Shown: positions 24 to 5,525 of the stretch, in pieces | Layout of the letters: each line of letters begins with the position of its first letter | How positions within the stretch are numbered: the stretch's first letter is position 1 | IMG/VR virus record: IMGVR_UViG_3300003155_000002 | Location: 1 to 5,525 of that record | Direction: 5' to 3' (one strand) | Source of the DNA: a virus | DNA: 5,525 nt | Notes under the pieces: generated by a model | Told to the model about the DNA's origin: nothing | Databases searched by the model: none | What the model saw: the letters and a program-made list of their open reading frames with translations, nothing else | Translations under genes and position numbers: made by a program

Positions 24-1589
24 ACTGTTCTCGCTCTGTACGGCTAGAGTCCGGTCGATGTTCTCCGTTCCTTCCTGAATCCACGTGCTGGAGAGAGTGG
101 GCAGCTCCTCGTAGTAGTCCGCGTAGTGCCACGCGTCCAGACTCTGTGCGTACTGGCTGCGCATCTCGCCGGTTACGATGTTAGGATGGTAACGGTAATC
201 TGCCCACGCTTCCTGGTAGCCAAAGACTTCATCGTCTTTCTTGGTTCCTTGGCAGTAGATTTCCTTGTTTAGGACGGCCATCTCGCCCAAGTTGGCCAGC
301 ATGGGATGATAGAAGTCAAACCGGGTTTTGCGGCTCCACATCCGGGAAAGGCCCTGCTGGTAGCTGTGGTCGACACGGATGCACCCCAGAATCATAAGAT
401 AGCCATGCTCCACGCTGGAATAGTTGCACATCTTGTTACGGAGAGTGGTCATAGAATATGCCGCCGTGTTGCCCTGAGGACTTGCATCAGTTGTTGCACT
501 GTTCTGGATGACCTGATTGATGTTGATGGGCACGCGAGTACCGCCCAGATATTCCGAACGTTGCAAACGGCTGTCAGGAGAAGTAACCCCGAACTCATGC
601 GCCAGCAGTTCAGTATACCGGGTACCGCCCCGGGCATCAGCTTCGAGAATATGCTGAATGGCGATAGCCTGCCGCAGCTCGTTGATGTTGATAGCCGTGA
701 GCGTGCTCGCGTCTGCTGCGAGGAACCCTTCCTGATTGGGTGTGTACATGTTCGTTGCGTTTACCGGCATGTTCACATTCCCCGAACTGTTGCCTTTCCA
801 GTCTCCGGTTGCGTAGTTGCTTCCGAGTGGTACGTCTTCTTTCATGTTAGGCACAAAGGCCGGTGCATTGTATTTGGTGATGAAATTCTGGTTCTCGTCT
901 GCCCAGTATACAGGAAGTGCTCCCGCCGCGACAGGAATTGCCGCCCCCTCGCCCTTCTGAGGCTCCGGCAGACAGGAGGTGAAATAGTCGTGGTATTTGG
1001 CCACCTTCAGCGGCAAGCCGCCTCCTTCTGCATTGTAGATGCTGCCCCCTGCGTTGGTTCCAGTGGTGTTGCCGTCGTCTTCGTGTACGAATGATGGTTG
1101 CTGTAAGTTTTCGTCTCTGAACCACTCGTTCCAGATTCTCGCGTAGGCCCGGAAGGGCAGGCTGTTTACGCTGATGCCATTGATGCCCGTGGGAATGCCC
1201 ATATAGTCGGCGATGGTGCCCACGTTCCAGCCGTTGGATGGTGCTGTAGTCTGCGGTACGCTGTACTCCGTTTTCTCGGCCCAGTAAGAGCTATCGTTCT
1301 GGCCCATGAGGTTCTCCCAGTGCTCCCACAGCAGCCGACACGGCACGAAAAACGCGTACGTGTCCAGATAGCAGTTATCCATCACAGGATAGAGCGGCGT
1401 ACTCATACGAATAAGTCCGTTCAGGTCGCAACTGATGGTGTCGCCCGGTAATACCTCGTCAACGTACAGCGGTACGAGGTCGCCCTCATTGATGGTCGTG
1501 ATGTTGGAAAAGTCCCGTTTGAACCGTGCCCGCCGGATTTCCGCGCGCGGTACCTGTGCAAACCGGCTCTCTGCGTTACGATTCGCCAT
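1..1589 (-). CDS. VP1: Major capsid protein VP1 (Microviridae F/VP1 family), N-terminal ~529 codons; continues across the circular junction into 5439-5502
   Basis: ATG at 1589-1587 lies downstream of GGAGGT (complement of 1601-1606). My translation is MANRNAESRFAQVPRAEIRRARFKRDFSNITTINEGDLVPLYVDEVLPGDT...AKYHDYFTSCLPEPQKGE...ININELRQAIAIQHILEADARGGTRYTELLAHEFGVTSPDSRLQRSEYLGG...FYHPMLANLGEMAVLNKEIY... These are conserved blocks of gokushovirus VP1, with a variable loop between them. The frame is open to the window edge, which is why the ORF track omits it. Total length with the wrapped part is 550 aa. Confidence 0.95.
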   Translation of the reverse strand, partial: MANRNAESRFAQVPRAEIRRARFKRDFSNITTINEGDLVPLYVDEVLPGDTISCDLNGLIRMSTPLYPVMDNCYLDTYAFFVPCRLLWEHWENLMGQNDSSYWAEKTEYSVPQTTAPSNGWNVGTIADYMGIPTGINGISVNSLPFRAYARIWNEWFRDENLQQPSFVHEDDGNTTGTNAGGSIYNAEGGGLPLKVAKYHDYFTSCLPEPQKGEGAAIPVAAGALPVYWADENQNFITKYNAPAFVPNMKEDVPLGSNYATGDWKGNSSGNVNMPVNATNMYTPNQEGFLAADASTLTAININELRQAIAIQHILEADARGGTRYTELLAHEFGVTSPDSRLQRSEYLGGTRVPININQVIQNSATTDASPQGNTAAYSMTTLRNKMCNYSSVEHGYLMILGCIRVDHSYQQGLSRMWSRKTRFDFYHPMLANLGEMAVLNKEIYCQGTKKDDEVFGYQEAWADYRYHPNIVTGEMRSQYAQSLDAWHYADYYEELPTLSSTWIQEGTENIDRTLAVQSENSHQFICDF

Positions 1590-2049
1590 TTTCTGTGGTT
1601 ACCTCCTTCTTCTCCTCTTTGGGTTTCTGGTTGATGCCCATCTTCTCGGTCCATTCGCCAGTCCCGGCCATGGATGCCCAGACTTCGAAACTGTTATCGA
1701 ACTTCTGTTTGATTTCGATGGGCAGAGCGTCAAATTTCTCTCTCTGTGCTGCCATCAGGTTGAAGAACCCATGAATGGTAGTCGGGAGTTCCGATGTGTC
1801 GATATACTTCGCGTCGTTTCTCATGACACTGGTGTCACCTGCTGCATACCGTTGCAACATAAGGTTGATGTCGCACTCTTCCTTGTGGCTCTGGATGATG
1901 GCAACGATGTCGGTTTCACCATCCTTCACAAGATACGGATGCCCGGTCTCTGTGTAGCGTTCCACGTAGTGCGGTTCAGTCTTGTTTCCTGCACAGGAGC
2001 ACTTCCGCGGCCGCTTCGGCCCATAAGGCAGGAAAATTTTAATCTTCAT
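1576..2049 (-). CDS. VP3: Internal scaffolding protein VP3 (157 aa)
   Basis: This is the internal Met of track ORF 1576-2148: MKIKIFLPYGPKRP...SHKEECDINLMLQRYAAGD...YIDTSELPTTIHGFFNLMAAQREKFDALPIEIKQKFDNSFEVW... The pattern ECDIN..(I/L)..(R/K)Y..G followed by F..LP...(K/R).(K/R)F.N is the one I recall for Chlamydia-phage-type VP3. The start ATG (2049-2047) overlaps the VP5 stop by 11 nt, and the stop overlaps the VP1 start by 14 nt (ATGGCGAATCGTAA). Confidence 0.85.
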   Translation of the reverse strand: MKIKIFLPYGPKRPRKCSCAGNKTEPHYVERYTETGHPYLVKDGETDIVAIIQSHKEECDINLMLQRYAAGDTSVMRNDAKYIDTSELPTTIHGFFNLMAAQREKFDALPIEIKQKFDNSFEVWASMAGTGEWTEKMGINQKPKEEKKEVTTENGES

Positions 2050-2290
2050 GTTTCCGCTTCCACTCCTTTTCGAGGTCGTACACCTCCGTGATGACATCCG
2101 CGGGTACAATCGTCCCCGACTCGTCCTCGTACATACCCACGTAGACAATGCGCTGGTCTTTGCAGTCCTGCTCGTTGCGTTCCTTGGCCATGAAGTCGAA
2201 TGTCCGCTGCGCAGTCTTGGGATTCAGCGTGAAAGGTGCGCTGTAGATGTCGGCCAGTTTGTCGTGAATAGCATAGATATACTTAGTCAT
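2039..2290 (-). CDS. VP5: Non-structural protein VP5 (Chlamydia-phage ORF5 family; proposed role in ssDNA synthesis/packaging), 83 aa
   Basis: MTKYIYAIHDKLADIYSAPFTLNPKTAQRTFDFM...IVYVGMYEDESGTIVP. The N-terminal (I/V/F).D.K...Y..PF....A.R.F pattern and the later Y.(D/E).(S/T)G...P pattern match my recollection of gokushovirus VP5. SD AAGGAGGA sits 8 nt upstream and contains the stop codon of the preceding small ORF. The position immediately upstream of VP3 is canonical. Confidence 0.75.
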   Translation of the reverse strand: MTKYIYAIHDKLADIYSAPFTLNPKTAQRTFDFMAKERNEQDCKDQRIVYVGMYEDESGTIVPADVITEVYDLEKEWKRKHED

Positions 2291-2304: not shown

Positions 2305-2424
2305 TTAGAATCTGATTCCGCCCCGGCTGTTCTTCGGCTTCACGTTTACGGTTTTGGTTTTCTTTGCCGTGTTGGTGAAAATCTTTTTGTCGGTCTTAGG
2401 TTTGACAGTCATACGGTGTGCCAT
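2305..2424 (-). CDS. Small highly basic protein, 39 aa; candidate DNA-binding/condensing protein (phiX174 J / gokushovirus ORF8 analogue). Not in the ORF track because it is below the size cutoff
   Basis: My translation: MAHRMTVKPKTDKKIFTNTAKKTKTVNVKPKNSRGGIRF*. It has 10 Lys + 3 Arg against 1 acidic residue. The K.IFT.TA.KT.K...RGGIR(F/L) C-terminal pattern resembles small basic ORFs of other gokushoviruses. GGAGGA lies 7 nt upstream. The start overlaps the peptidase stop as TAATG, sharing the A at 2424. An alternative start is Met5 at 2412. Confidence 0.7.
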   Translation of the reverse strand: MAHRMTVKPKTDKKIFTNTAKKTKTVNVKPKNSRGGIRF

Positions 2425-2828
2425 TATTTCTTCCTCCATTCTTTCATTCTAACGTCTACGTGTACGAAGTTTTGATGAAGCTCTAATCCCCCCCATCCTT
2501 TCATCATCTCGTTCAGGAGCTTGTACAGCTCTGCTGGCGTCCTGGTCTTGGCCCGGATGTCTGCCGCCATGCCGTACTGATGGTACGACAGGTGCGCCCC
2601 GCCAACGGCTTTGTTATGACCAGGCGTTCGGAACCCGCTGTTGATGTAGATTTCCTCGTCGATCTTCTGCCGCAGGCCCTCCAGGACCTGCACTAGGATT
2701 TTGGAAATCAGGACGAATTCGCATCCATCCTTGCACGCGAATTCCTTCGCGCGAAAGTGTCTGCTGACTTGTTCGTCCATTCGACTGCAAATCAGAACGG
2801 TTTCTGTCTCATTTACTGTCTTCGGCAT
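2424..2828 (-). CDS. Zinc metallopeptidase, peptidase M15 family (M15A / Peptidase_M15_3-like peptidoglycan peptidase); putative lysis enzyme, 134 aa (143 aa if started at 2855)
   Basis: Track ORF 2424-2855 contains HFRAKEFACKDGC...YINSGFRTPGHNKAVGGAHLSYHQYGMAADI...GGLELHQNFVHVDVR. This gives the SG(Y/F)R...N..VGG...S.H..G.A.D plus H.D layout, i.e. H/D/H zinc ligands, characteristic of M15 cell-wall peptidases. I prefer the ATG at 2828 because GGAGAGGA lies 9 nt upstream, whereas the ATG at 2855 has no SD and falls inside the upstream small ORF. Confidence 0.88.
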   Translation of the reverse strand: MPKTVNETETVLICSRMDEQVSRHFRAKEFACKDGCEFVLISKILVQVLEGLRQKIDEEIYINSGFRTPGHNKAVGGAHLSYHQYGMAADIRAKTRTPAELYKLLNEMMKGWGGLELHQNFVHVDVRMKEWRKK

Positions 2829-2919
2829 TGTCGTTTTCCTCTCCAATCGTTGCATGATAGAGTTTGTCCAGGACTTCCAGAATATTCTTCAGAAGTTCCA
2901 CGATTTCGATCGTGGTCAT
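2809..2919 (-). CDS. Hypothetical 36-aa acidic protein; first cistron after the candidate promoter. Not in the ORF track
   Basis: AGGAGGTGAACCA precedes the ATG at 2919-2917. My translation: MTTIEIVELLKNILEVLDKLYHATIGEENDNAEDSK*. That gives 9 acidic vs 3 Lys, a predicted amphipathic helix followed by an acidic tail, and no TM segment. The 3' end overlaps the preferred peptidase start by 20 nt. Coding status is supported only by the SD, the position and the open frame. Confidence 0.4.
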   Translation of the reverse strand: MTTIEIVELLKNILEVLDKLYHATIGEENDNAEDSK

Positions 2920-2948
2920 TGGTTCACCTCCTTTCTGTCTTTGATCCT

Positions 2949-2976
2949 ATTATATCAGAAAATAATTAACAATCAA
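2949..2976 (-). promoter_or_regulatory. Sigma70-type promoter candidate with extended -10, reading towards lower coordinates
   Basis: The coding strand reads TTGATT (2976-2971), a 16-nt spacer, then TGATATAAT: an extended TGn plus a perfect TATAAT at 2954-2949. It lies in the only sizeable AT-rich non-coding stretch, about 30 nt upstream of the 36-aa ORF. Confidence 0.5.
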
Positions 2977-3038
2977 CGGTGAATTTCAGGAAACAATGTT
3001 GAAAACTTATTCGGTTCTCAAGGTGCGTATCGGTAGAG

Positions 3039-3125
3039 CAAGGCCGAATCCCGGCGATTCCTCAAAAGGCCGCGCCAGCGGCCCATTCTAATAAAAGAGC
3101 CGGTAGGCCGCCCAGCCTTTCGGCC
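3039..3125. other. GC-rich cluster of short inverted repeats in the main non-coding region; candidate structured ssDNA/RNA element
   Basis: Inverted repeats seen: GAATC-ccggc-GATTC (3047-3061); GGCCGC-gcca-GCGGCC (3068-3083); GGCCG-N10-CGGCC (3106-3125), with an inner GCC-tttc-GGC. The hexamer AGGCCG occurs at 3041, 3067 and 3105. Confidence 0.5.
3061..3084 (-). terminator. Candidate rho-independent terminator/attenuator downstream of VP4
   Basis: The coding strand reads GGCCGC-TGGC-GCGGCC: a 6-bp all-GC stem (3083-3078 / 3073-3068) with a 4-nt loop, followed directly by TTTT (complement of 3064-3067). Both the stem and the U-tract are short, so at best this is a leaky terminator. Confidence 0.4.
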
Positions 3126-3155
3126 ATCGTGCGTTTGCTCCCTTTATTCAGCATT

Positions 3156-4322
3156 TTAGACCTGCTCTTTACAAGGTCGCTGTGTGGTTATCTTGTGCTT
3201 CTCTTCGTATTTGGTTTTCTGCACGTCCATATACTCTAAGATTGTTAGTGTGGTCTTTTCTAGCTTTGCAAAGAGACTGTCCATTGCTTTCTGCCGTCTC
3301 TCCCTTTTGAGTTCCTGCATTGCAGAGGATTCCATCTTAGGAACGGCGATTTTCTCAGCGTCTCGTTTCTGCTGCCGATTGTATAACTGAATCCGGCGCT
3401 TCTCGCCCTTGAAGATGCCCATTTCTTCGTCAGAGAGTCCGAACTCCTTCATACATTGGTATTCGTCCTCTTTAATGTCGTAAAGTTTGCAGGGTTTCTG
3501 TTTGCGGCCTTCTTTAAGGTAAATCAGGTCTTTGCTGTAGATTTCGTCCCGGTGTTCCTCATAGTATCGTAGTCCTATAGCTGGTTTTAGGCTCATGTTG
3601 ATAAACTCTTTATTGAGTCCCTCCTCCTGATACCATTCATTGCCTGTCTTGCCTTTTTGTTTTTTGACGATGTAGCGTGCAACATACTGGCAAGACTTGT
3701 AGTCAACGCCTCCGATATCGTGAAATCCATTCGGCCACAGCTTGCTGATGGTCTCACTCAGGAAGTGATAGTAGCCCTTGCTCATGTAGTGGAACTTCAA
3801 ATCAGGCAGTTTCAGCCCGTAGATTATCATATGGTAGTGTGGCCTGTGAGTTCCTGTGCCGTATTCGCCACAGTAAAAGTAGCGGATGCCCTTCTCTTTA
3901 TCTTCTACCAAATCATGATGTTCTGCGTAGTCTCTTAATCTTTTCATGAAGTCTTGAACATCCTTTTTAAAAAGGTTAAGTCTTTCGTAGTGCTTGCCGT
4001 AATTATAGTAATCTACAGGGTTTTTTAAGCCTCTGTAAATTTCGCCGGTAATTTTGTTGATAACCGGCACGTGTTCGTCATCATAAGTTAGTGTGATGAA
4101 GTGGTTATTCTGGTAGTAGTAGCTCTCGACCTCACATCTTGCCGCCCAGTTCTTTGCATAGTTCAGCCGGCATTCGAGGCATTGGCCGCAAGGGATGATT
4201 TTCGCAAGGTCACTTTTCAGCATCTTGGTAAGTTGCATATTGTCGATATCGTTCTCCTTGCAATATTTCTTGAGGCCGCCCTTAAATTTGCGGCCTATAA
4301 GAACATTAGGTGCGTAGCACAT
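3156..4322 (-). CDS. VP4: Replication initiation protein VP4 (HUH rolling-circle endonuclease, phiX174 gpA superfamily), 388 aa
   Basis: MCYAPN...PCGQCLECRLNYAKNWAARC is the Cys-rich N-terminal motif typical of microvirus VP4. FITLTY is RCR motif 1. HRPHYHMIIYG is the HUH motif 2. YVARYIVKK is motif 3 with two Tyr three residues apart, as in phiX174 gpA. AGGAGGT lies 8 nt upstream of the ATG at 4322. Confidence 0.95.
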   Translation of the reverse strand: MCYAPNVLIGRKFKGGLKKYCKENDIDNMQLTKMLKSDLAKIIPCGQCLECRLNYAKNWAARCEVESYYYQNNHFITLTYDDEHVPVINKITGEIYRGLKNPVDYYNYGKHYERLNLFKKDVQDFMKRLRDYAEHHDLVEDKEKGIRYFYCGEYGTGTHRPHYHMIIYGLKLPDLKFHYMSKGYYHFLSETISKLWPNGFHDIGGVDYKSCQYVARYIVKKQKGKTGNEWYQEEGLNKEFINMSLKPAIGLRYYEEHRDEIYSKDLIYLKEGRKQKPCKLYDIKEDEYQCMKEFGLSDEEMGIFKGEKRRIQLYNRQQKRDAEKIAVPKMESSAMQELKRERRQKAMDSLFAKLEKTTLTILEYMDVQKTKYEEKHKITTQRPCKEQV

Positions 4323-4357
4323 AGTCGTTTACCTCCTTTACGCTGCTGACCTCTCGA

Positions 4358-4394
4358 TAGGCCAGTAGGACATACTTGTTGTCCTACTGGCCTA
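4358..4394. repeat. Perfect 15-bp inverted repeat (hairpin) with a 7-nt loop, between the VP2 stop and the VP4 SD
   Basis: taggccagtaggaca (4358-4372), tacttgt loop (4373-4379), tgtcctactggccta (4380-4394). There is no T-run after it on the coding strand, so it is not a canonical intrinsic terminator. Confidence 0.95.
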
Positions 4395-4413: not shown

Positions 4414-5379
4414 TTAATAACCTCTGTCATAAGTCTTAGTCCCACTCTTGGAAGTGCGAGATCCTCCGATACTGACCTCTCCTCCTGCATTCCAGCCGCT
4501 GCCCTTGCTGCCGCCGAAGCTGCTCTGGCCGTGTACACTGTCCGCAATCTGGCTCGTCTTGGCTACCTGCTTGCTCGTAGAGTCAGTAATCTGGCTCATT
4601 TGCTGCGAAAGCTGACTTGCCGTGTATTCCTGCCCGAGCTGTTTTGCTGTCATGATTGCCTGTCCGTAGTTCTGTACGACCTGTGCATTGTTGTTGCCGT
4701 AGTCGTACATCGCCGACATTGCTGCAGTCTTTGCAGACGGAATAGCCGCCGCCTGTGCGTGTGCGTAAGTTGTTCCTCCGATGGAAGCACCCGAGGAACT
4801 AGGCGTACTGGTTGCCCCGTTCTGTGCTGCAAGGATAGGATTGAGGCCCGCCTTCTTCATGTCCTTCACAGTGTCCTGATAGGCTGTCTGCCGCATGGCC
4901 CGCTGCCATTGTCTCGCAAGCTCTGCCTGCTTTGCGTTGTATGCCTTGGCGCTGGTCTGCGAAAGCATATTCATCAGGTTGGCCTGCCCTGTGCTGAGCA
5001 GGTTCAGGATATTTGCGTTGTTCCACTGGTTCGCCATCAGGTTGTTTGCCGTGGTCGCGCTCCCCTGGCTTGCATTGAAAGCTGCCTGTGCATTGTTGCC
5101 GGTCGGTGTCCCAAGTGCAGTTGAGAGGAAGTTCGCAAGGCCCGAAACACTGCCCTGCTGTACTGTGCTTGTGGAAGTTTGCCCGGACTGGCTCATTGCG
5201 GAGCTGCTGCTGCCGCTCTGCATGATGCTGCCAAGCTGGTTTCCGCTGCCGGTCTGATGGCTGCCGCCTCCGCCGGACGCCCATTCATTGACTTTGTTGC
5301 TTATGTACTGGCCCCCGGCCTGAATGCCGAGGTTAAGAACCGTTCCAAGGAGCTGTGTTGCCCATACCGGTAAAGGCAT
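4414..5379 (-). CDS. VP2: Minor capsid / DNA pilot protein VP2 (functional analogue of phiX174 H), 321 aa
   Basis: The protein has a hydrophobic N-terminus (MPLPVWATQLLGTVLNLGIQAGG) and long Gly/Ser/Gln/Asn/Ala low-complexity regions. Its central conserved block, ARQWQRAMRQTAYQDTVKDMKKAGLNPILA, matches the ...TAYQR.V.DMK.AGLNP.LA motif I associate with gokushovirus VP2. AGGAGGT lies 7 nt upstream, and the position directly after VP1 is canonical. Confidence 0.9.
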   Translation of the reverse strand: MPLPVWATQLLGTVLNLGIQAGGQYISNKVNEWASGGGGSHQTGSGNQLGSIMQSGSSSSAMSQSGQTSTSTVQQGSVSGLANFLSTALGTPTGNNAQAAFNASQGSATTANNLMANQWNNANILNLLSTGQANLMNMLSQTSAKAYNAKQAELARQWQRAMRQTAYQDTVKDMKKAGLNPILAAQNGATSTPSSSGASIGGTTYAHAQAAAIPSAKTAAMSAMYDYGNNNAQVVQNYGQAIMTAKQLGQEYTASQLSQQMSQITDSTSKQVAKTSQIADSVHGQSSFGGSKGSGWNAGGEVSIGGSRTSKSGTKTYDRGY

Positions 5380-5407
5380 TCTGTTTACCTCCTGTTGTAA
5401 TAAGATA

Positions 5408-5431
5408 GGCCCGGCCCGTCAAGGCCGAGCC
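5408..5431. repeat. GC-rich hairpin between the VP1 stop and the VP2 SD; possible leaky terminator or RNA/ssDNA structure
   Basis: ggcccggcc (5408-5416), cgtcaa loop, ggccgagcc (5423-5431): 8 of 9 positions pair, with one C/A mismatch. On the coding strand it is followed by a T-rich but interrupted tract (TATCTTATT). Confidence 0.65.
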
Positions 5432-5438
5432 GAAAATT

Positions 5439-5525
5439 TTAGATGCTGTTGATGCCGGGTACGCTATAGATAGGCATAGGCCGTGTCCAGGTCTGGTCAA
5501 AGAAGAAGTCACAGATAAACTGGTG
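5439..5525 (-). CDS. VP1: Major capsid protein VP1, C-terminal end (5503-5525 duplicates 1-23); stop TAA at 5441-5439
   Basis: Reverse-complement reading from 5525 gives HQFICDFFFDQTWTRPMPIYSVPGINSI*, in frame with the segment 1-1589 once the 23-nt redundancy is collapsed. Confidence 0.9.
   Translation of the reverse strand, partial: HQFICDFFFDQTWTRPMPIYSVPGINSI
5503..5525. repeat. Terminal direct repeat, right copy (duplicate of 1-23)
   Basis: Exact 23/23 match to the window start. The unique genome length is therefore 5502 nt. Confidence 0.95.

Follow-up and report, generated by a model that had tools for sequence, protein, structure and literature searches.

A family of small acidic proteins and an M15 peptidase in the variable VP4-VP5 interval of a chicken-gut gokushovirus

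The VP4-VP5 interval of a gokushovirus from chicken gut (IMG/VR record IMGVR_UViG_3300003155_000002) is a variable small-gene region, in which a horizontally acquired M15 peptidase, a candidate endolysin of a known kind by its sequence, stands between the core gene VP8 and the gene of a 36-amino-acid (aa) acidic protein, here called sm, that founds an unannotated and, as far as profile searches reach, microvirus-only protein family occurring in two gut gokushovirus clades. The genome is circular (5502 nt), and the stretch analysed, referred to as the window (5,525 nt), carries a 23-nt terminal repeat. Gokushoviruses are among the commonest phages of animal guts and, to our knowledge, their lysis mechanism is still undefined. 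Horizontally acquired M15 peptidases in microviruses are already known; what is new is a large unannotated family of small acidic helical proteins (29-79 aa) that tracks the peptidase across two clades, together with a complementary pattern in which sm-negative lineages often encode a small membrane protein instead.

Genes and control signals of the VP4-VP5 interval

The interval is bounded upstream by the VP4 replication initiator gene (3156..4322, minus strand; PF23343 and phrog_942, E = 3.7e-89) and downstream by VP5 (Phage_ORF5; 2039..2290, minus strand; PF20577, E = 5e-10), and contains, all on the minus strand, a promoter, the 36-aa ORF (sm), a 134-aa peptidase and a 39-aa ORF. A terminator-like hairpin with a T-run (3098..3117, minus strand), whose flanking GC-rich blocks are kept in relatives, lies 3' of VP4 and parts it from the promoter. 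The latter, of sigma-70 type (2949..2976, minus strand), combines the -35 element TTGATT, a 16-nt spacer and the extended -10 element TG-n-TATAAT, and the preliminary description was right to call it the best candidate of the genome, as it is the top sigma-70 match genome-wide (10/12 positions plus the upstream TG) with -35 TTGA and -10 TATAAT unvaried across this genome (WIN), L001, L002 and L110. The Shine-Dalgarno sequence AGGAGG of sm (2927..2932, minus strand) lies 7 nt 5' of its ATG, and AAAGGAGGTGAA at this site is unvaried across four relatives. The ORFs, their overlaps and the M15 signature are present on the minus strand where they had been placed, with sm and the peptidase overlapping by 20 nt (2828-2809) and the peptidase and the 39-aa ORF by 1 nt (TAATG). 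The statement that this interval holds little or nothing in minimal gokushoviruses does not apply to the present lineage, in which it normally holds VP8/J. An extra 53-aa ORF is inserted between promoter and sm in L001 and L002, and neither this ORF nor ORF60 and ORF75 of clade B nor the ORFs of L116-L120 gave a usable Pfam or PHROG match. IMG/VR is nearly devoid of this genome's own clade (VP4 retrieved two loci, the 36-aa type of sm one locus).

The peptidase gene (2424..2828, minus strand) encodes a predicted zinc peptidoglycan peptidase of the Peptidase_M15_3 family (MEROPS M15A-like, LAS fold), an endolysin candidate of 134 aa. The ORF ends at 2424 and opens with an ATG at 2855 (143 aa) or at 2828 (134 aa); the range of 134-143 aa given previously therefore covers two existing starts, of which the longer is not the real one, because homologues are nearly all 134 aa (among the 120 matches listed), gene callers choose the start at 2828 and the Shine-Dalgarno sequence GGAGAGGA lies ahead of it. 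The protein matches Pfam PF08291 (Peptidase_M15_3) with E = 3.4e-19 and 69.4 bits, where the curated gathering cutoff is 23.2, over positions 4-108 of the 108-position profile, and it also matches phrog_894, annotated as 'endolysin' (E = 6e-34). Residues R67, H71, S81-Y82-H83, D90, H118, H123 and D125 are unvaried in 35 homologues, and S81-Y-H83-QYGMAA-D90 lines up with SRHMYGHAAD of the DD-peptidase 1LBU and SEHQLGLAVD of VanY, giving the LAS metal-ligand motif SxHxxGxAxD plus a downstream His, whose zinc binding is assigned by motif alone. Among solved relatives 1LBU is the closest (28% identity, E = 7e-8, SxHxxGxAxD aligned), followed by VanY. The AlphaFold2 model, which is of moderate quality (pLDDT 68; residues 1-33 unreliable and the N-terminal third of low confidence), resembles the hedgehog/DD-peptidase, VanY, Ply500 and ChiX folds, and Foldseek matched it to hedgehog N-terminal domains, 1LBU, VanY, Ply500, ChiX and LysECD7 (probability 0.97-1.0, TM ~0.4-0.54). 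Profile score, ligand motif and hedgehog/DD-peptidase fold thus all place the protein in Peptidase_M15_3, and the profile and structure comparisons proposed in the preliminary description both came out in favor of an M15 enzyme.

The peptidase of GenBank relatives is already labelled 'peptidase M15', and the caveat that this domain already occurs in Microviridae proved correct (Roux 2012, PMC3394797; Kirchberger 2022, PMC9239249; PMC7062461). Copies with 46% identity are found in tailed-phage contigs (18-58 kb; IMG/VR L004-L011), where the very next genes encode an 84-aa protein with one TM segment and an 83-aa holin-like protein with two, which agrees with the capture of an M15 enzyme suggested earlier. 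Among sm-positive genomes the peptidases share only 30-50% identity with one another, and the gene appears to have been swapped or replaced repeatedly. The enzyme is very probably muralytic, as predicted from family and motif, and its use in lysis is likely.

The 39-aa ORF (2305..2424, minus strand; pI 11.8) encodes a predicted VP8/J-like basic DNA-binding protein ending in RGGIRF. It matches phrog_10695 over all 39 profile positions and has near-identical copies in L001 and L002, and a VP8 HMM found matches in 48 of 58 gokushovirus loci chosen by VP1 alone, almost all of them without a peptidase. Counterparts are labelled 'DNA binding protein' in Dulem virus records, and VP8 belongs to a conserved six-gene set (PMC7062461). 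The ORF is a core VP8/J-like gokushovirus gene rather than an accessory one, with DNA binding predicted from family membership: length (~37-40 aa), basic character, the C-terminal RGGIR(F/L), subfamily-wide presence and independence of accessory genes are all as found in that family. Set beside gokushovirus VP8 and phiX174 J, it is alike in small size, strong basicity, C-terminus and subfamily-wide presence, with no notable difference; only its adjacency to a peptidase varies between lineages.

The sm family and its association with the peptidase

The sm gene (2809..2919, minus strand) encodes an acidic amphipathic protein of 36 aa (MTTIEIVELLKNILEVLDKLYHATIGEENDNAEDSK) with the motif I-L-E-x-L-D-x-(I/L)-Y-H-A, a pI of 4.25, a net charge of -6.4 and a hydrophobic moment of 0.63. 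AlphaFold2 predicts a single helix over residues 2-33 (pLDDT ~90 over residues 1-20), one face of which, E15-D18-Y21-H22, is invariant. Relative to L001, third codon positions take most of the changes, with 9 synonymous against 3 non-synonymous substitutions, and the other frames contain stops; on this substitution pattern sm is a genuine conserved gene under purifying selection. Homologues were found in L001, L002, L110-L112 and about 100 further microvirus loci, and the family splits into at least 1145 clusters when grouped at 90% identity and into 52 when grouped at 50%, with lengths of 29-79 aa apart from one mis-called extension of 136 aa. Neither Pfam nor PHROG gave a match, and a profile search covering 1.84 billion representative sequences recovered sm neither as part of a longer protein nor in tailed phages. 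The anionic character of sm speaks against direct membrane disruption. Two further ideas were rejected. An export signal of the T7SS type (YxxxD/E) in sm fails on its spacing, which is not conserved, and a fusion of sm with the peptidase by programmed frameshifting fails because inspection showed no slippery heptamer and because clade B encodes sm after the enzyme.

The peptidase is adjacent to or near sm in 22 of the 25 sm-positive lineages sampled, and stands immediately upstream of it in 80/80 IMG/VR loci retrieved through sm; in the set selected by VP1, sm occurs in two of four peptidase-positive and none of 54 peptidase-negative loci. In several arrangements the pair overlaps or directly adjoins. 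Gene order is fluid, with four arrangements seen (sm-pep-J, J-sm-pep, pep-J-sm and pep-sm-ORF75-J), and the trio, whose synteny across relatives had been proposed as a check, does not keep one order; in L121 and L106 VP8 stands between peptidase and sm. Sm is a resident gene of its lineage rather than an appendage of the peptidase, because it is kept in three genomes without a peptidase (L118, L119 and L120) and missing from peptidase-positive genomes (L103, L104, L134 and L151, as also L179 and L180). Nor are the two strictly co-inherited, since peptidase identity is as low as stated above and in L121 a sm of clade A accompanies a peptidase resembling those of clade B. A recombinant pair cited by Kirchberger (2022), MG945328/MG945336, was considered as a case of peptidase and sm moving together and was rejected, as their shared 760-nt block lacks sm and includes a peptidase of another subtype along with a TM ORF. 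Adjacency is weak evidence in itself because every small gene is confined to one permissive interval, and all sm-positive genomes fall into only two clades of a rough NJ tree without branch support, so that the contrasts in peptidase and, below, in TM ORFs are phylogenetically non-independent and possibly also confounded by base composition. Some link between sm and the peptidase, or between sm and lysis, is accordingly put forward as a tentative suggestion, one that we would sooner doubt than assert.

Export route and candidate mechanisms of lysis

A scan of every coding-strand frame for TM segments (19-mers with a Kyte-Doolittle hydropathy of 1.6 or more and no more than one charged residue) detected no TM ORF in this genome apart from one non-conserved overprinted ORF within VP1, and no signal peptide or SAR segment in the peptidase, the N-terminus of which (MPKTVNETETVLICSRMDEQVSRHF) is polar. 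The pairing of a TM protein with the endolysin that defines a holin-endolysin cassette is therefore not seen here. The ORF within VP1 (449-637, minus strand, 62 aa) was considered as an overprinted lysis gene of the phiX174 E type and rejected, being a weak pass that is missing from L001, L002 and L110. Small intergenic TM ORFs were likewise found in 0/24 sm-positive genomes, which extends to relatives the earlier observation that an export signal and a holin-like ORF are lacking, and 79 of 83 sm-positive, peptidase-carrying genomes scanned had no TM ORF at all, the four exceptions being non-recurrent. About 25 of 41 sm-negative genomes had at least one small TM ORF, for example a conserved one after VP2 in L103, L104, L134 and L174, and in L179 and L180 a TM ORF overlaps the peptidase. 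The sm-bearing lineages and those with small TM ORFs are thus complementary in distribution.

Our data could be accommodated by a mechanism in which a swappable M15_3 endolysin, resident sm and core VP8 are expressed together and the enzyme is released independently of a holin with sm as its partner, an explanation that we adopt as a working one although it falls a little short of an even call. Transcription would start at the promoter (2976-2949) and proceed through sm, peptidase, VP8 and VP5. The peptidase, taken from the lysis cassettes of tailed phages or bacteria, would cut peptide bonds of peptidoglycan and serve as the endolysin of the phage, while VP8/J would condense DNA. Since no holin, signal or SAR sequence or E-like membrane protein is encoded, release would be holin-independent. 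Sm, translated just before the enzyme and coupled to it, would be the non-membrane partner for release, acting through its invariant helix face either to guide the enzyme towards an export pathway of the host or to restrain it until the membrane fails. A stronger version, that sm is a new soluble lysis factor replacing the small TM (holin/E-like) protein of sister lineages in the two gut gokushovirus clades and letting exchangeable M15 endolysins be released or activated without a holin in hosts that are Gram-positive (Clostridia), is speculative and on present evidence unlikely. Were sm to mediate holin-independent lysis, the two genes would make a minimal lysis module and a new way for an endolysin to cross the membrane, and were it to replace the TM protein, gokushoviruses would for the first time have a defined lysis system. 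The closest integrated relatives, with VP1 identities of 49-53%, reside in long contigs of Clostridia, among them those of the isolates Oscillibacter sp. PC13 and Muriventricola aceti, so the host is probably a member of the Clostridia, as judged from relatives about 50% identical in VP1, and cultured Oscillibacter and Muriventricola isolates as probable hosts of the group make experiments feasible.

It is also quite possible, if somewhat less so than this mechanism, that sm is unconnected with both peptidase and lysis and is a lineage-specific protein, such as an acidic chaperone for basic VP8/J or a replication or packaging factor, brought close to the peptidase only by confinement to the VP4-VP5 interval, with the peptidase reaching the wall by a host- or damage-dependent route. 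The peptidase-less genomes L118-L120 retain sm directly after or before VP8, VP8 and sm stop and start codons overlap or abut in L115, L116, L117 and L120, conservation is much higher in sm than in the adjoining peptidase, which seems to have been exchanged repeatedly, and the charges of the two small proteins are opposite (-6.4 for sm and +10.6 for VP8), all of which would fit such a role; yet VP8 is almost universal in gokushoviruses and sm is restricted to two clades, which argues against a general dependence of VP8 on sm, peptidase-negative genomes outside one subclade are nearly without sm, and the sm-positive clades are the only ones without small TM ORFs. The preliminary description had instead taken the three ORFs for one captured accessory cassette, and their joint movement and function as a single module (regulator, murein hydrolase and J-like protein) would account for the overlaps and common promoter, but is already contradicted by synteny and scarcely credible: VP8/J is a core gene independent of the peptidase (48/58 VP1-selected loci), sm occurs without peptidase in L118-L120, clades differ in gene order, the 53-aa ORF intervenes between promoter and sm in L001 and L002, and the histories of peptidase and sm are discordant.

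The peptidase itself might act without export, as a cytoplasmic M15 enzyme of the VanX/VanY type that trims D-Ala-D-Ala off soluble or lipid-linked precursors and so blocks cross-linking, an enzymatic counterpart of the starvation of wall synthesis by phiX174 E, Qbeta A2 and phage M Lys. The closest solved sequence relatives are DD-carboxypeptidases (1LBU, then VanY), no signal peptide, SAR segment or holin is present, and the single-gene lysis known from small phages generally hits precursor synthesis; we nevertheless judge this improbable, as the 46%-identical homologues reside in classical holin-endolysin cassettes of tailed phages, the PHROG class is endolysin, other microviruses with the same enzyme do encode small TM proteins, and the structural model is of low confidence in its N-terminal third. 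Even less probable is that the peptidase is an entry aid, virion-associated and opening the thick Gram-positive wall locally at infection, since a T=1 capsid with a 5.5-kb genome leaves hardly any space, there is neither a fusion to a structural protein nor a docking domain, and the enzyme is missing from most relatives with the same host group, although the hosts are probably Clostridia and trace Gp7 was found in Ebor virions (PMC11980548).

Comparison with known lysis systems

The enzyme of the tailed-phage cassettes (L004-L011) is alike, being of similar length and equally without a cell-wall-binding domain, whereas theirs is followed by the one-TM and two-TM holin-like proteins and the scan detected none on the coding strand here. 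Gp1 of mycobacteriophage Ms6 is a small chaperone-like protein that binds the N-terminus of the endolysin LysA and enables its holin-independent export. In both phages a small acidic protein is encoded directly upstream of, and overlapping, a signal-less endolysin, a layout that the window shares with most sm-positive genomes and which we offer as an analogy only: sm has no sequence similarity to Gp1, is about half its size and forms a single helix, and is sometimes encoded downstream of or apart from the enzyme (separated by VP8) or in genomes without it. The E protein of phiX174 is an overprinted protein with an N-terminal TM segment that inhibits MraY. The need to lyse with minimal coding capacity is common to E, other amurins and this phage, which by the scan has no such conserved ORF and instead encodes a predicted muralytic enzyme.

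Gp7 of Ebor, a microvirus of the Tainavirinae, is a peptidoglycan hydrolase that degrades peptidoglycan in vitro (PMC11980548). Both are peptidoglycan hydrolases encoded by microviruses, here by prediction, but Gp7 seemingly belongs to another enzyme family (best HHpred match 6SSC_A, with no M15 assignment reported), and Ebor, unlike this phage, encodes a 45-aa membrane protein, Gp1 (PMC11980548). Further parallels are the M15_3 peptidase genes that Gokushovirinae and Alpavirinae of the human gut carry, for which the available text of two surveys proposes a horizontal origin and an endolysin role (Roux 2012, PMC3394797; Kirchberger 2022, PMC9239249), the latter role being likewise proposed elsewhere (PMC7062461). 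In that text 5 of 11 peptidase genes adjoin an 'unknown' ORF (Roux 2012, PMC3394797), the small partner ORF is left undefined in both and the absence of a holin in microviral genomes is not addressed (PMC3394797, PMC9239249). As described in those portions, the microviral peptidases and the one reported here are alike in Pfam family, in their position in the variable region, and in proposed origin and role.

Genome organization and the small-gene interval

The 23-nt direct repeat at the window's termini (1-23 = 5503-5525) means that its 5525 bases close into a circle and represent a complete 5502-nt genome. The minus strand carries every gene, assigned from Pfam and PHROG matches, and in transcription order these are VP1 (start 1589, across the origin/window junction), VP2 (5379-4414), VP4 (4322-3156), an intergenic region of 236 nt, the 36-aa acidic ORF that we term sm (2919-2809), the M15 peptidase (2828-2424), a 39-aa basic ORF (2424-2305), VP5 (2290-2039) and VP3 (ending at 1576). 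The nearest GenBank records are Chicken microvirus mg7_10 and mg4_115, and identical genomes are present in chicken-gut metagenome assemblies, where independent gene callers predict products of exactly 36, 134 and 39 aa. All of the sequence features listed in the preliminary description (ORFs, M15 signature, overlaps and promoter) were found in the window, including the junction overlaps of 20 nt and 1 nt (TAATG), and the promoter that it placed ahead of these genes (TTGATT-16-TATAAT with an upstream TG) is the top match genome-wide and is conserved in four relatives.

A terminator-like hairpin lies downstream of VP4, and this intergenic region (2980-3155, minus) contains conserved GC-rich hairpins and conserved blocks, among them GCACCTTGAGAACCGAAT..AGTTTTCAACA. 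Among relatives, the pseudo-ORF 'MLNKG...' located there retains only its first codons, which points away from a gene and towards an element conserved at the DNA or RNA level (a terminator, origin or packaging signal). An additional conserved 53-aa ORF (MIKTEVTVKVYDSEEASYEIRNLKKLGYQRTQNAFW...) with its own RBS is present in mg7_10 (4188-4349) and mg4_115 (4218-4379), inserted precisely between the RBS of sm and the conserved promoter upstream of it; this ORF is absent from the window and had no match in Pfam and PHROG scans.

The 39-aa ORF matches phrog_10695 over its full length, is nearly identical in mg7_10 and mg4_115, shares an RGGIR(F/L) tail with all relatives and is annotated as 'DNA binding protein' in Dulem virus records. 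The ORF corresponds to VP8, a member of the conserved six-gene gokushovirus set (Kirchberger and Ochman, 2020; PMC7062461). Its earlier description as J-like holds, whereas its placement in an accessory cassette does not: an HMM of seven versions matched 48 of 58 gokushovirus loci taken from bacterial genomes through VP1 alone (the peptidase was present in only four), and the ORF is a core gene.

The M15 peptidase and its origin

The peptidase matches Pfam Peptidase_M15_3 with 69.4 bits (cutoff 23.2) and PHROG 894 'endolysin' with E=6e-34. Its closest solved structure by sequence is the Streptomyces albus zinc DD-peptidase (1LBU), followed by VanY; the SxHxxGxAxD metal motif aligns with that of 1LBU, in agreement with the predicted M15 match, and R67, H71, S81, Y82, H83, D90, H118, H123 and D125 are invariant among 35 homologues. 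An AlphaFold2 model (pLDDT 68; residues 1-33 unreliable) likewise resembles proteins of the LAS fold (hedgehog N-domains, 1LBU, VanY, Ply500 and ChiX). As nearly all of the 120 homologues listed are 134 aa long, the real start is the ATG at 2828; of the 134-143 aa protein originally proposed, the M15 ORF stands and the 143-aa start does not.

The microviral M15 peptidase itself is already known, as the preliminary description had cautioned and as three published accounts agree. Roux et al. (2012; PMC3394797) describe M15_3 peptidases in 11 human-associated Microviridae, argue for repeated horizontal transfer and propose an endolysin role, Kirchberger et al. (2022; PMC9239249) list peptidases among lysis-associated accessory genes and describe a peptidase block recombined between families, and gokushoviruses have been characterized as devoid of a phiX-type lysis gene, "although some appear to have acquired bacterial peptidases" (Kirchberger and Ochman, 2020; PMC7062461). 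Our tblastn analysis revealed 465 phage records matching the peptidase, many of them gut microviruses with an existing 'peptidase' annotation. Copies that are 46% identical occur in phage contigs of 18-58 kb, where the directly following genes code for an 84-aa one-TM protein and an 83-aa two-TM holin-like protein, supporting an endolysin origin of the peptidase. A 760-nt block, 76% identical, has recombined between the two distant microvirus families of MG945328 and MG945336; it comprises the peptidase and, overlapping the 3' end of the peptidase gene, a small ORF that ends in a TM segment (..ISNALCALISAVCAALSYFFS; 5353-5493 and 5679-5819, respectively), and this pair may travel as a module in these viruses.

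The sm gene and its relation to the peptidase

Our analysis shows that sm is a real, conserved and undescribed gene. Substitutions among the window, mg7_10 and a further relative (L110) fall mostly at codon position 3 (10 of 14 against mg7_10, with nine synonymous and three non-synonymous changes), and both other frames contain stops. Divergent versions share the core motif I-L-E-x-L-D-x-(I/L)-Y-H-A, beyond which lies an acidic tail that varies. A profile search returned at least 1145 clusters at 90% identity (32-73 aa, mostly from contigs of ~5.5-6 kb), in which no Pfam domain was found, and HMMER, run exhaustively over 1.84 billion representatives, gave 52 clusters at 50% identity, all of 29-79 aa bar one; this 136-aa member is a mis-called N-terminal extension, so no genuinely larger protein contains the motif. 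AlphaFold2 models sm as a single helix, and the protein's hydrophobic moment (0.63), pI (4.25) and charge (-6.4) mark it as strongly amphipathic and anionic.

All 80 IMG/VR loci retrieved through sm have the peptidase directly upstream, the reverse of the window's own clade, in which sm precedes and overlaps it. Within the VP1-selected set, sm occurs in two of the four peptidase-positive loci and in no peptidase-negative locus. Elsewhere, sm adjoins VP8 and the peptidase is absent (Dulem viruses 202 and 205 and MG945186), or the peptidase is found without sm (Dulem viruses 189 and 203, the Oscillibacter sp. PC13 prophage, a Melainabacteria MAG locus and MG945328/MG945336). The gene orders observed are sm-pep-VP8, VP8-sm-pep, pep-VP8-sm and pep-sm-ORF75-VP8. 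A rough VP1 neighbour-joining tree, without support values, contains two sm-positive clades, with the three peptidase-less members in one subclade. The peptidases of sm-positive genomes are 30-50% identical to one another, at a comparable distance to the tailed-phage enzyme, and one locus (L121) pairs a clade-A sm with a clade-B-like peptidase. With VP8 a core gene, gene order variable, and sm and the peptidase each occurring alone, the three ORFs do not form the coupled accessory cassette originally proposed; read most simply, sm is resident in the two clades and the peptidase is a repeatedly replaced cassette landing next to it.

In human-gut clade B (L003, L012-L102) two further conserved orphan ORFs flank the peptidase-sm pair, one of 60 aa (..YELRSWNDDDTMTTVLKI..) upstream and, separating sm from VP8, one coding for a 75-aa helical protein (..WNIRDQPEE..IWQTKSFANDIEMEL..); in L003, one lies at 1781-1963 and the other at 2526-2753.

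Membrane proteins, host and lysis

At a threshold of Kyte-Doolittle hydropathy >=1.6 with at most one charged residue, the coding strand of the window contains no hydrophobic 19-mer except in a 62-aa ORF overprinted in VP1 (449-637, minus; weakly hydrophobic LLLLTAVCNVRNIWAVLA), the sole candidate for a membrane segment, which was rejected as it is not conserved in mg7_10, mg4_115 or L110. Among 83 sm-positive genomes with peptidase, 79 had no hydrophobic ORF below 200 aa and the four exceptions were non-recurrent. The missing export signal and holin-like TM ORF of the preliminary description are thus confirmed, and the absence of an export route is real and general across sm-positive genomes. 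At least one small hydrophobic ORF outside the large genes was found in 0 of 24 sm-positive genomes versus ~25 of 41 sm-negative gokushovirus genomes or prophages, a contrast limited by the two sm-positive clades, crude hydropathy thresholds, prophage-flank false positives and spurious frames in T-rich genomes. Among the conserved examples is a TM protein of 42-58 aa common to Dulem viruses 189 and 203 (L103 2607-2783 and L104 2577-2786) and the Oscillibacter prophage, encoded right after VP2 (..YATYLVLKLLRYACAALKLWINIH..), which makes a candidate for a holin or an E-like lysis protein of gokushoviruses. Others are a 43-aa TM ORF in a similar place in the Muriventricola aceti prophage (L174 10776-10907), which has no peptidase, and the TM ORF over the peptidase 3' end in MG945328/MG945336. 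The reading of a 1702-aa 'NosD/Beta_helix + Phage_F' product (L109 2351-7459; ENA ERZ28615443 scaffold_3259) as a giant capsid protein was dropped; it is most likely an assembly chimera, in which the reading frame of a secreted beta-helix protein runs on into VP1 across a 62-nt repeat that is also present at the contig end.

The closest relatives found as integrated elements (VP1 49-53% identical) are located within Clostridia contigs of 15-317 kb, some of them from cultured isolates (Oscillibacter sp. PC13, Muriventricola aceti H5_61), and more distant ones in Phascolarctobacterium. The Oscillibacter element (NZ_FOXE01000003.1, 5762-10725; 44% GC vs 55% in the flanks) has the order VP4-VP8-peptidase-VP5-VP3-VP1-VP2-TM ORF, and its peptidase is 81% identical to that of Dulem virus 203. 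Many gokushovirus prophages (L122-L135, L164, L167, L174) were seen in long Clostridia contigs and also in Phascolarctobacterium faecium DSM 14760, so that this branch of the subfamily appears to be commonly lysogenic in Bacillota. The Clostridia-integrated relatives are consistent with the suggestion that some gokushoviruses infect Firmicutes (Roux et al., 2012; PMC3394797), in which case the cytoplasmic membrane would be the only barrier to cross.

The observation made in the preliminary description is confirmed and its interpretation partly supported. The peptidase is very probably muralytic, and we consider it likely to serve lysis. We favour lysis that is holin-independent and endolysin-based, with the peptidase as muralytic effector and sm as the best candidate for its missing partner, as escort or brake, a proposal that as a whole falls just short of an even prospect. 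The lack of small TM ORFs in sm-positive genomes versus their presence in many sm-negative ones is the main reason to suspect a role of sm in lysis; a functional tie between sm and the peptidase is a tentative possibility. The main rival explanation, that sm has an unrelated role such as neutralising the basic VP8 and adjoins the peptidase only through a shared permissive interval of small genes, strikes us as somewhat doubtful. A VanX/VanY-like cytoplasmic attack on peptidoglycan precursors would need no export; set beside the holin-like neighbours of the phage copies, we regard it as very unlikely.

New here are a conserved family of acidic proteins, candidate partners of the peptidase, and the consistent lack of membrane proteins, and the significance would be greater than at present if sm is a lysis factor. 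In mycobacteriophage Ms6 the small acidic Gp1 is encoded right upstream of LysA, and sm may be likened to it in gene arrangement and charge only.
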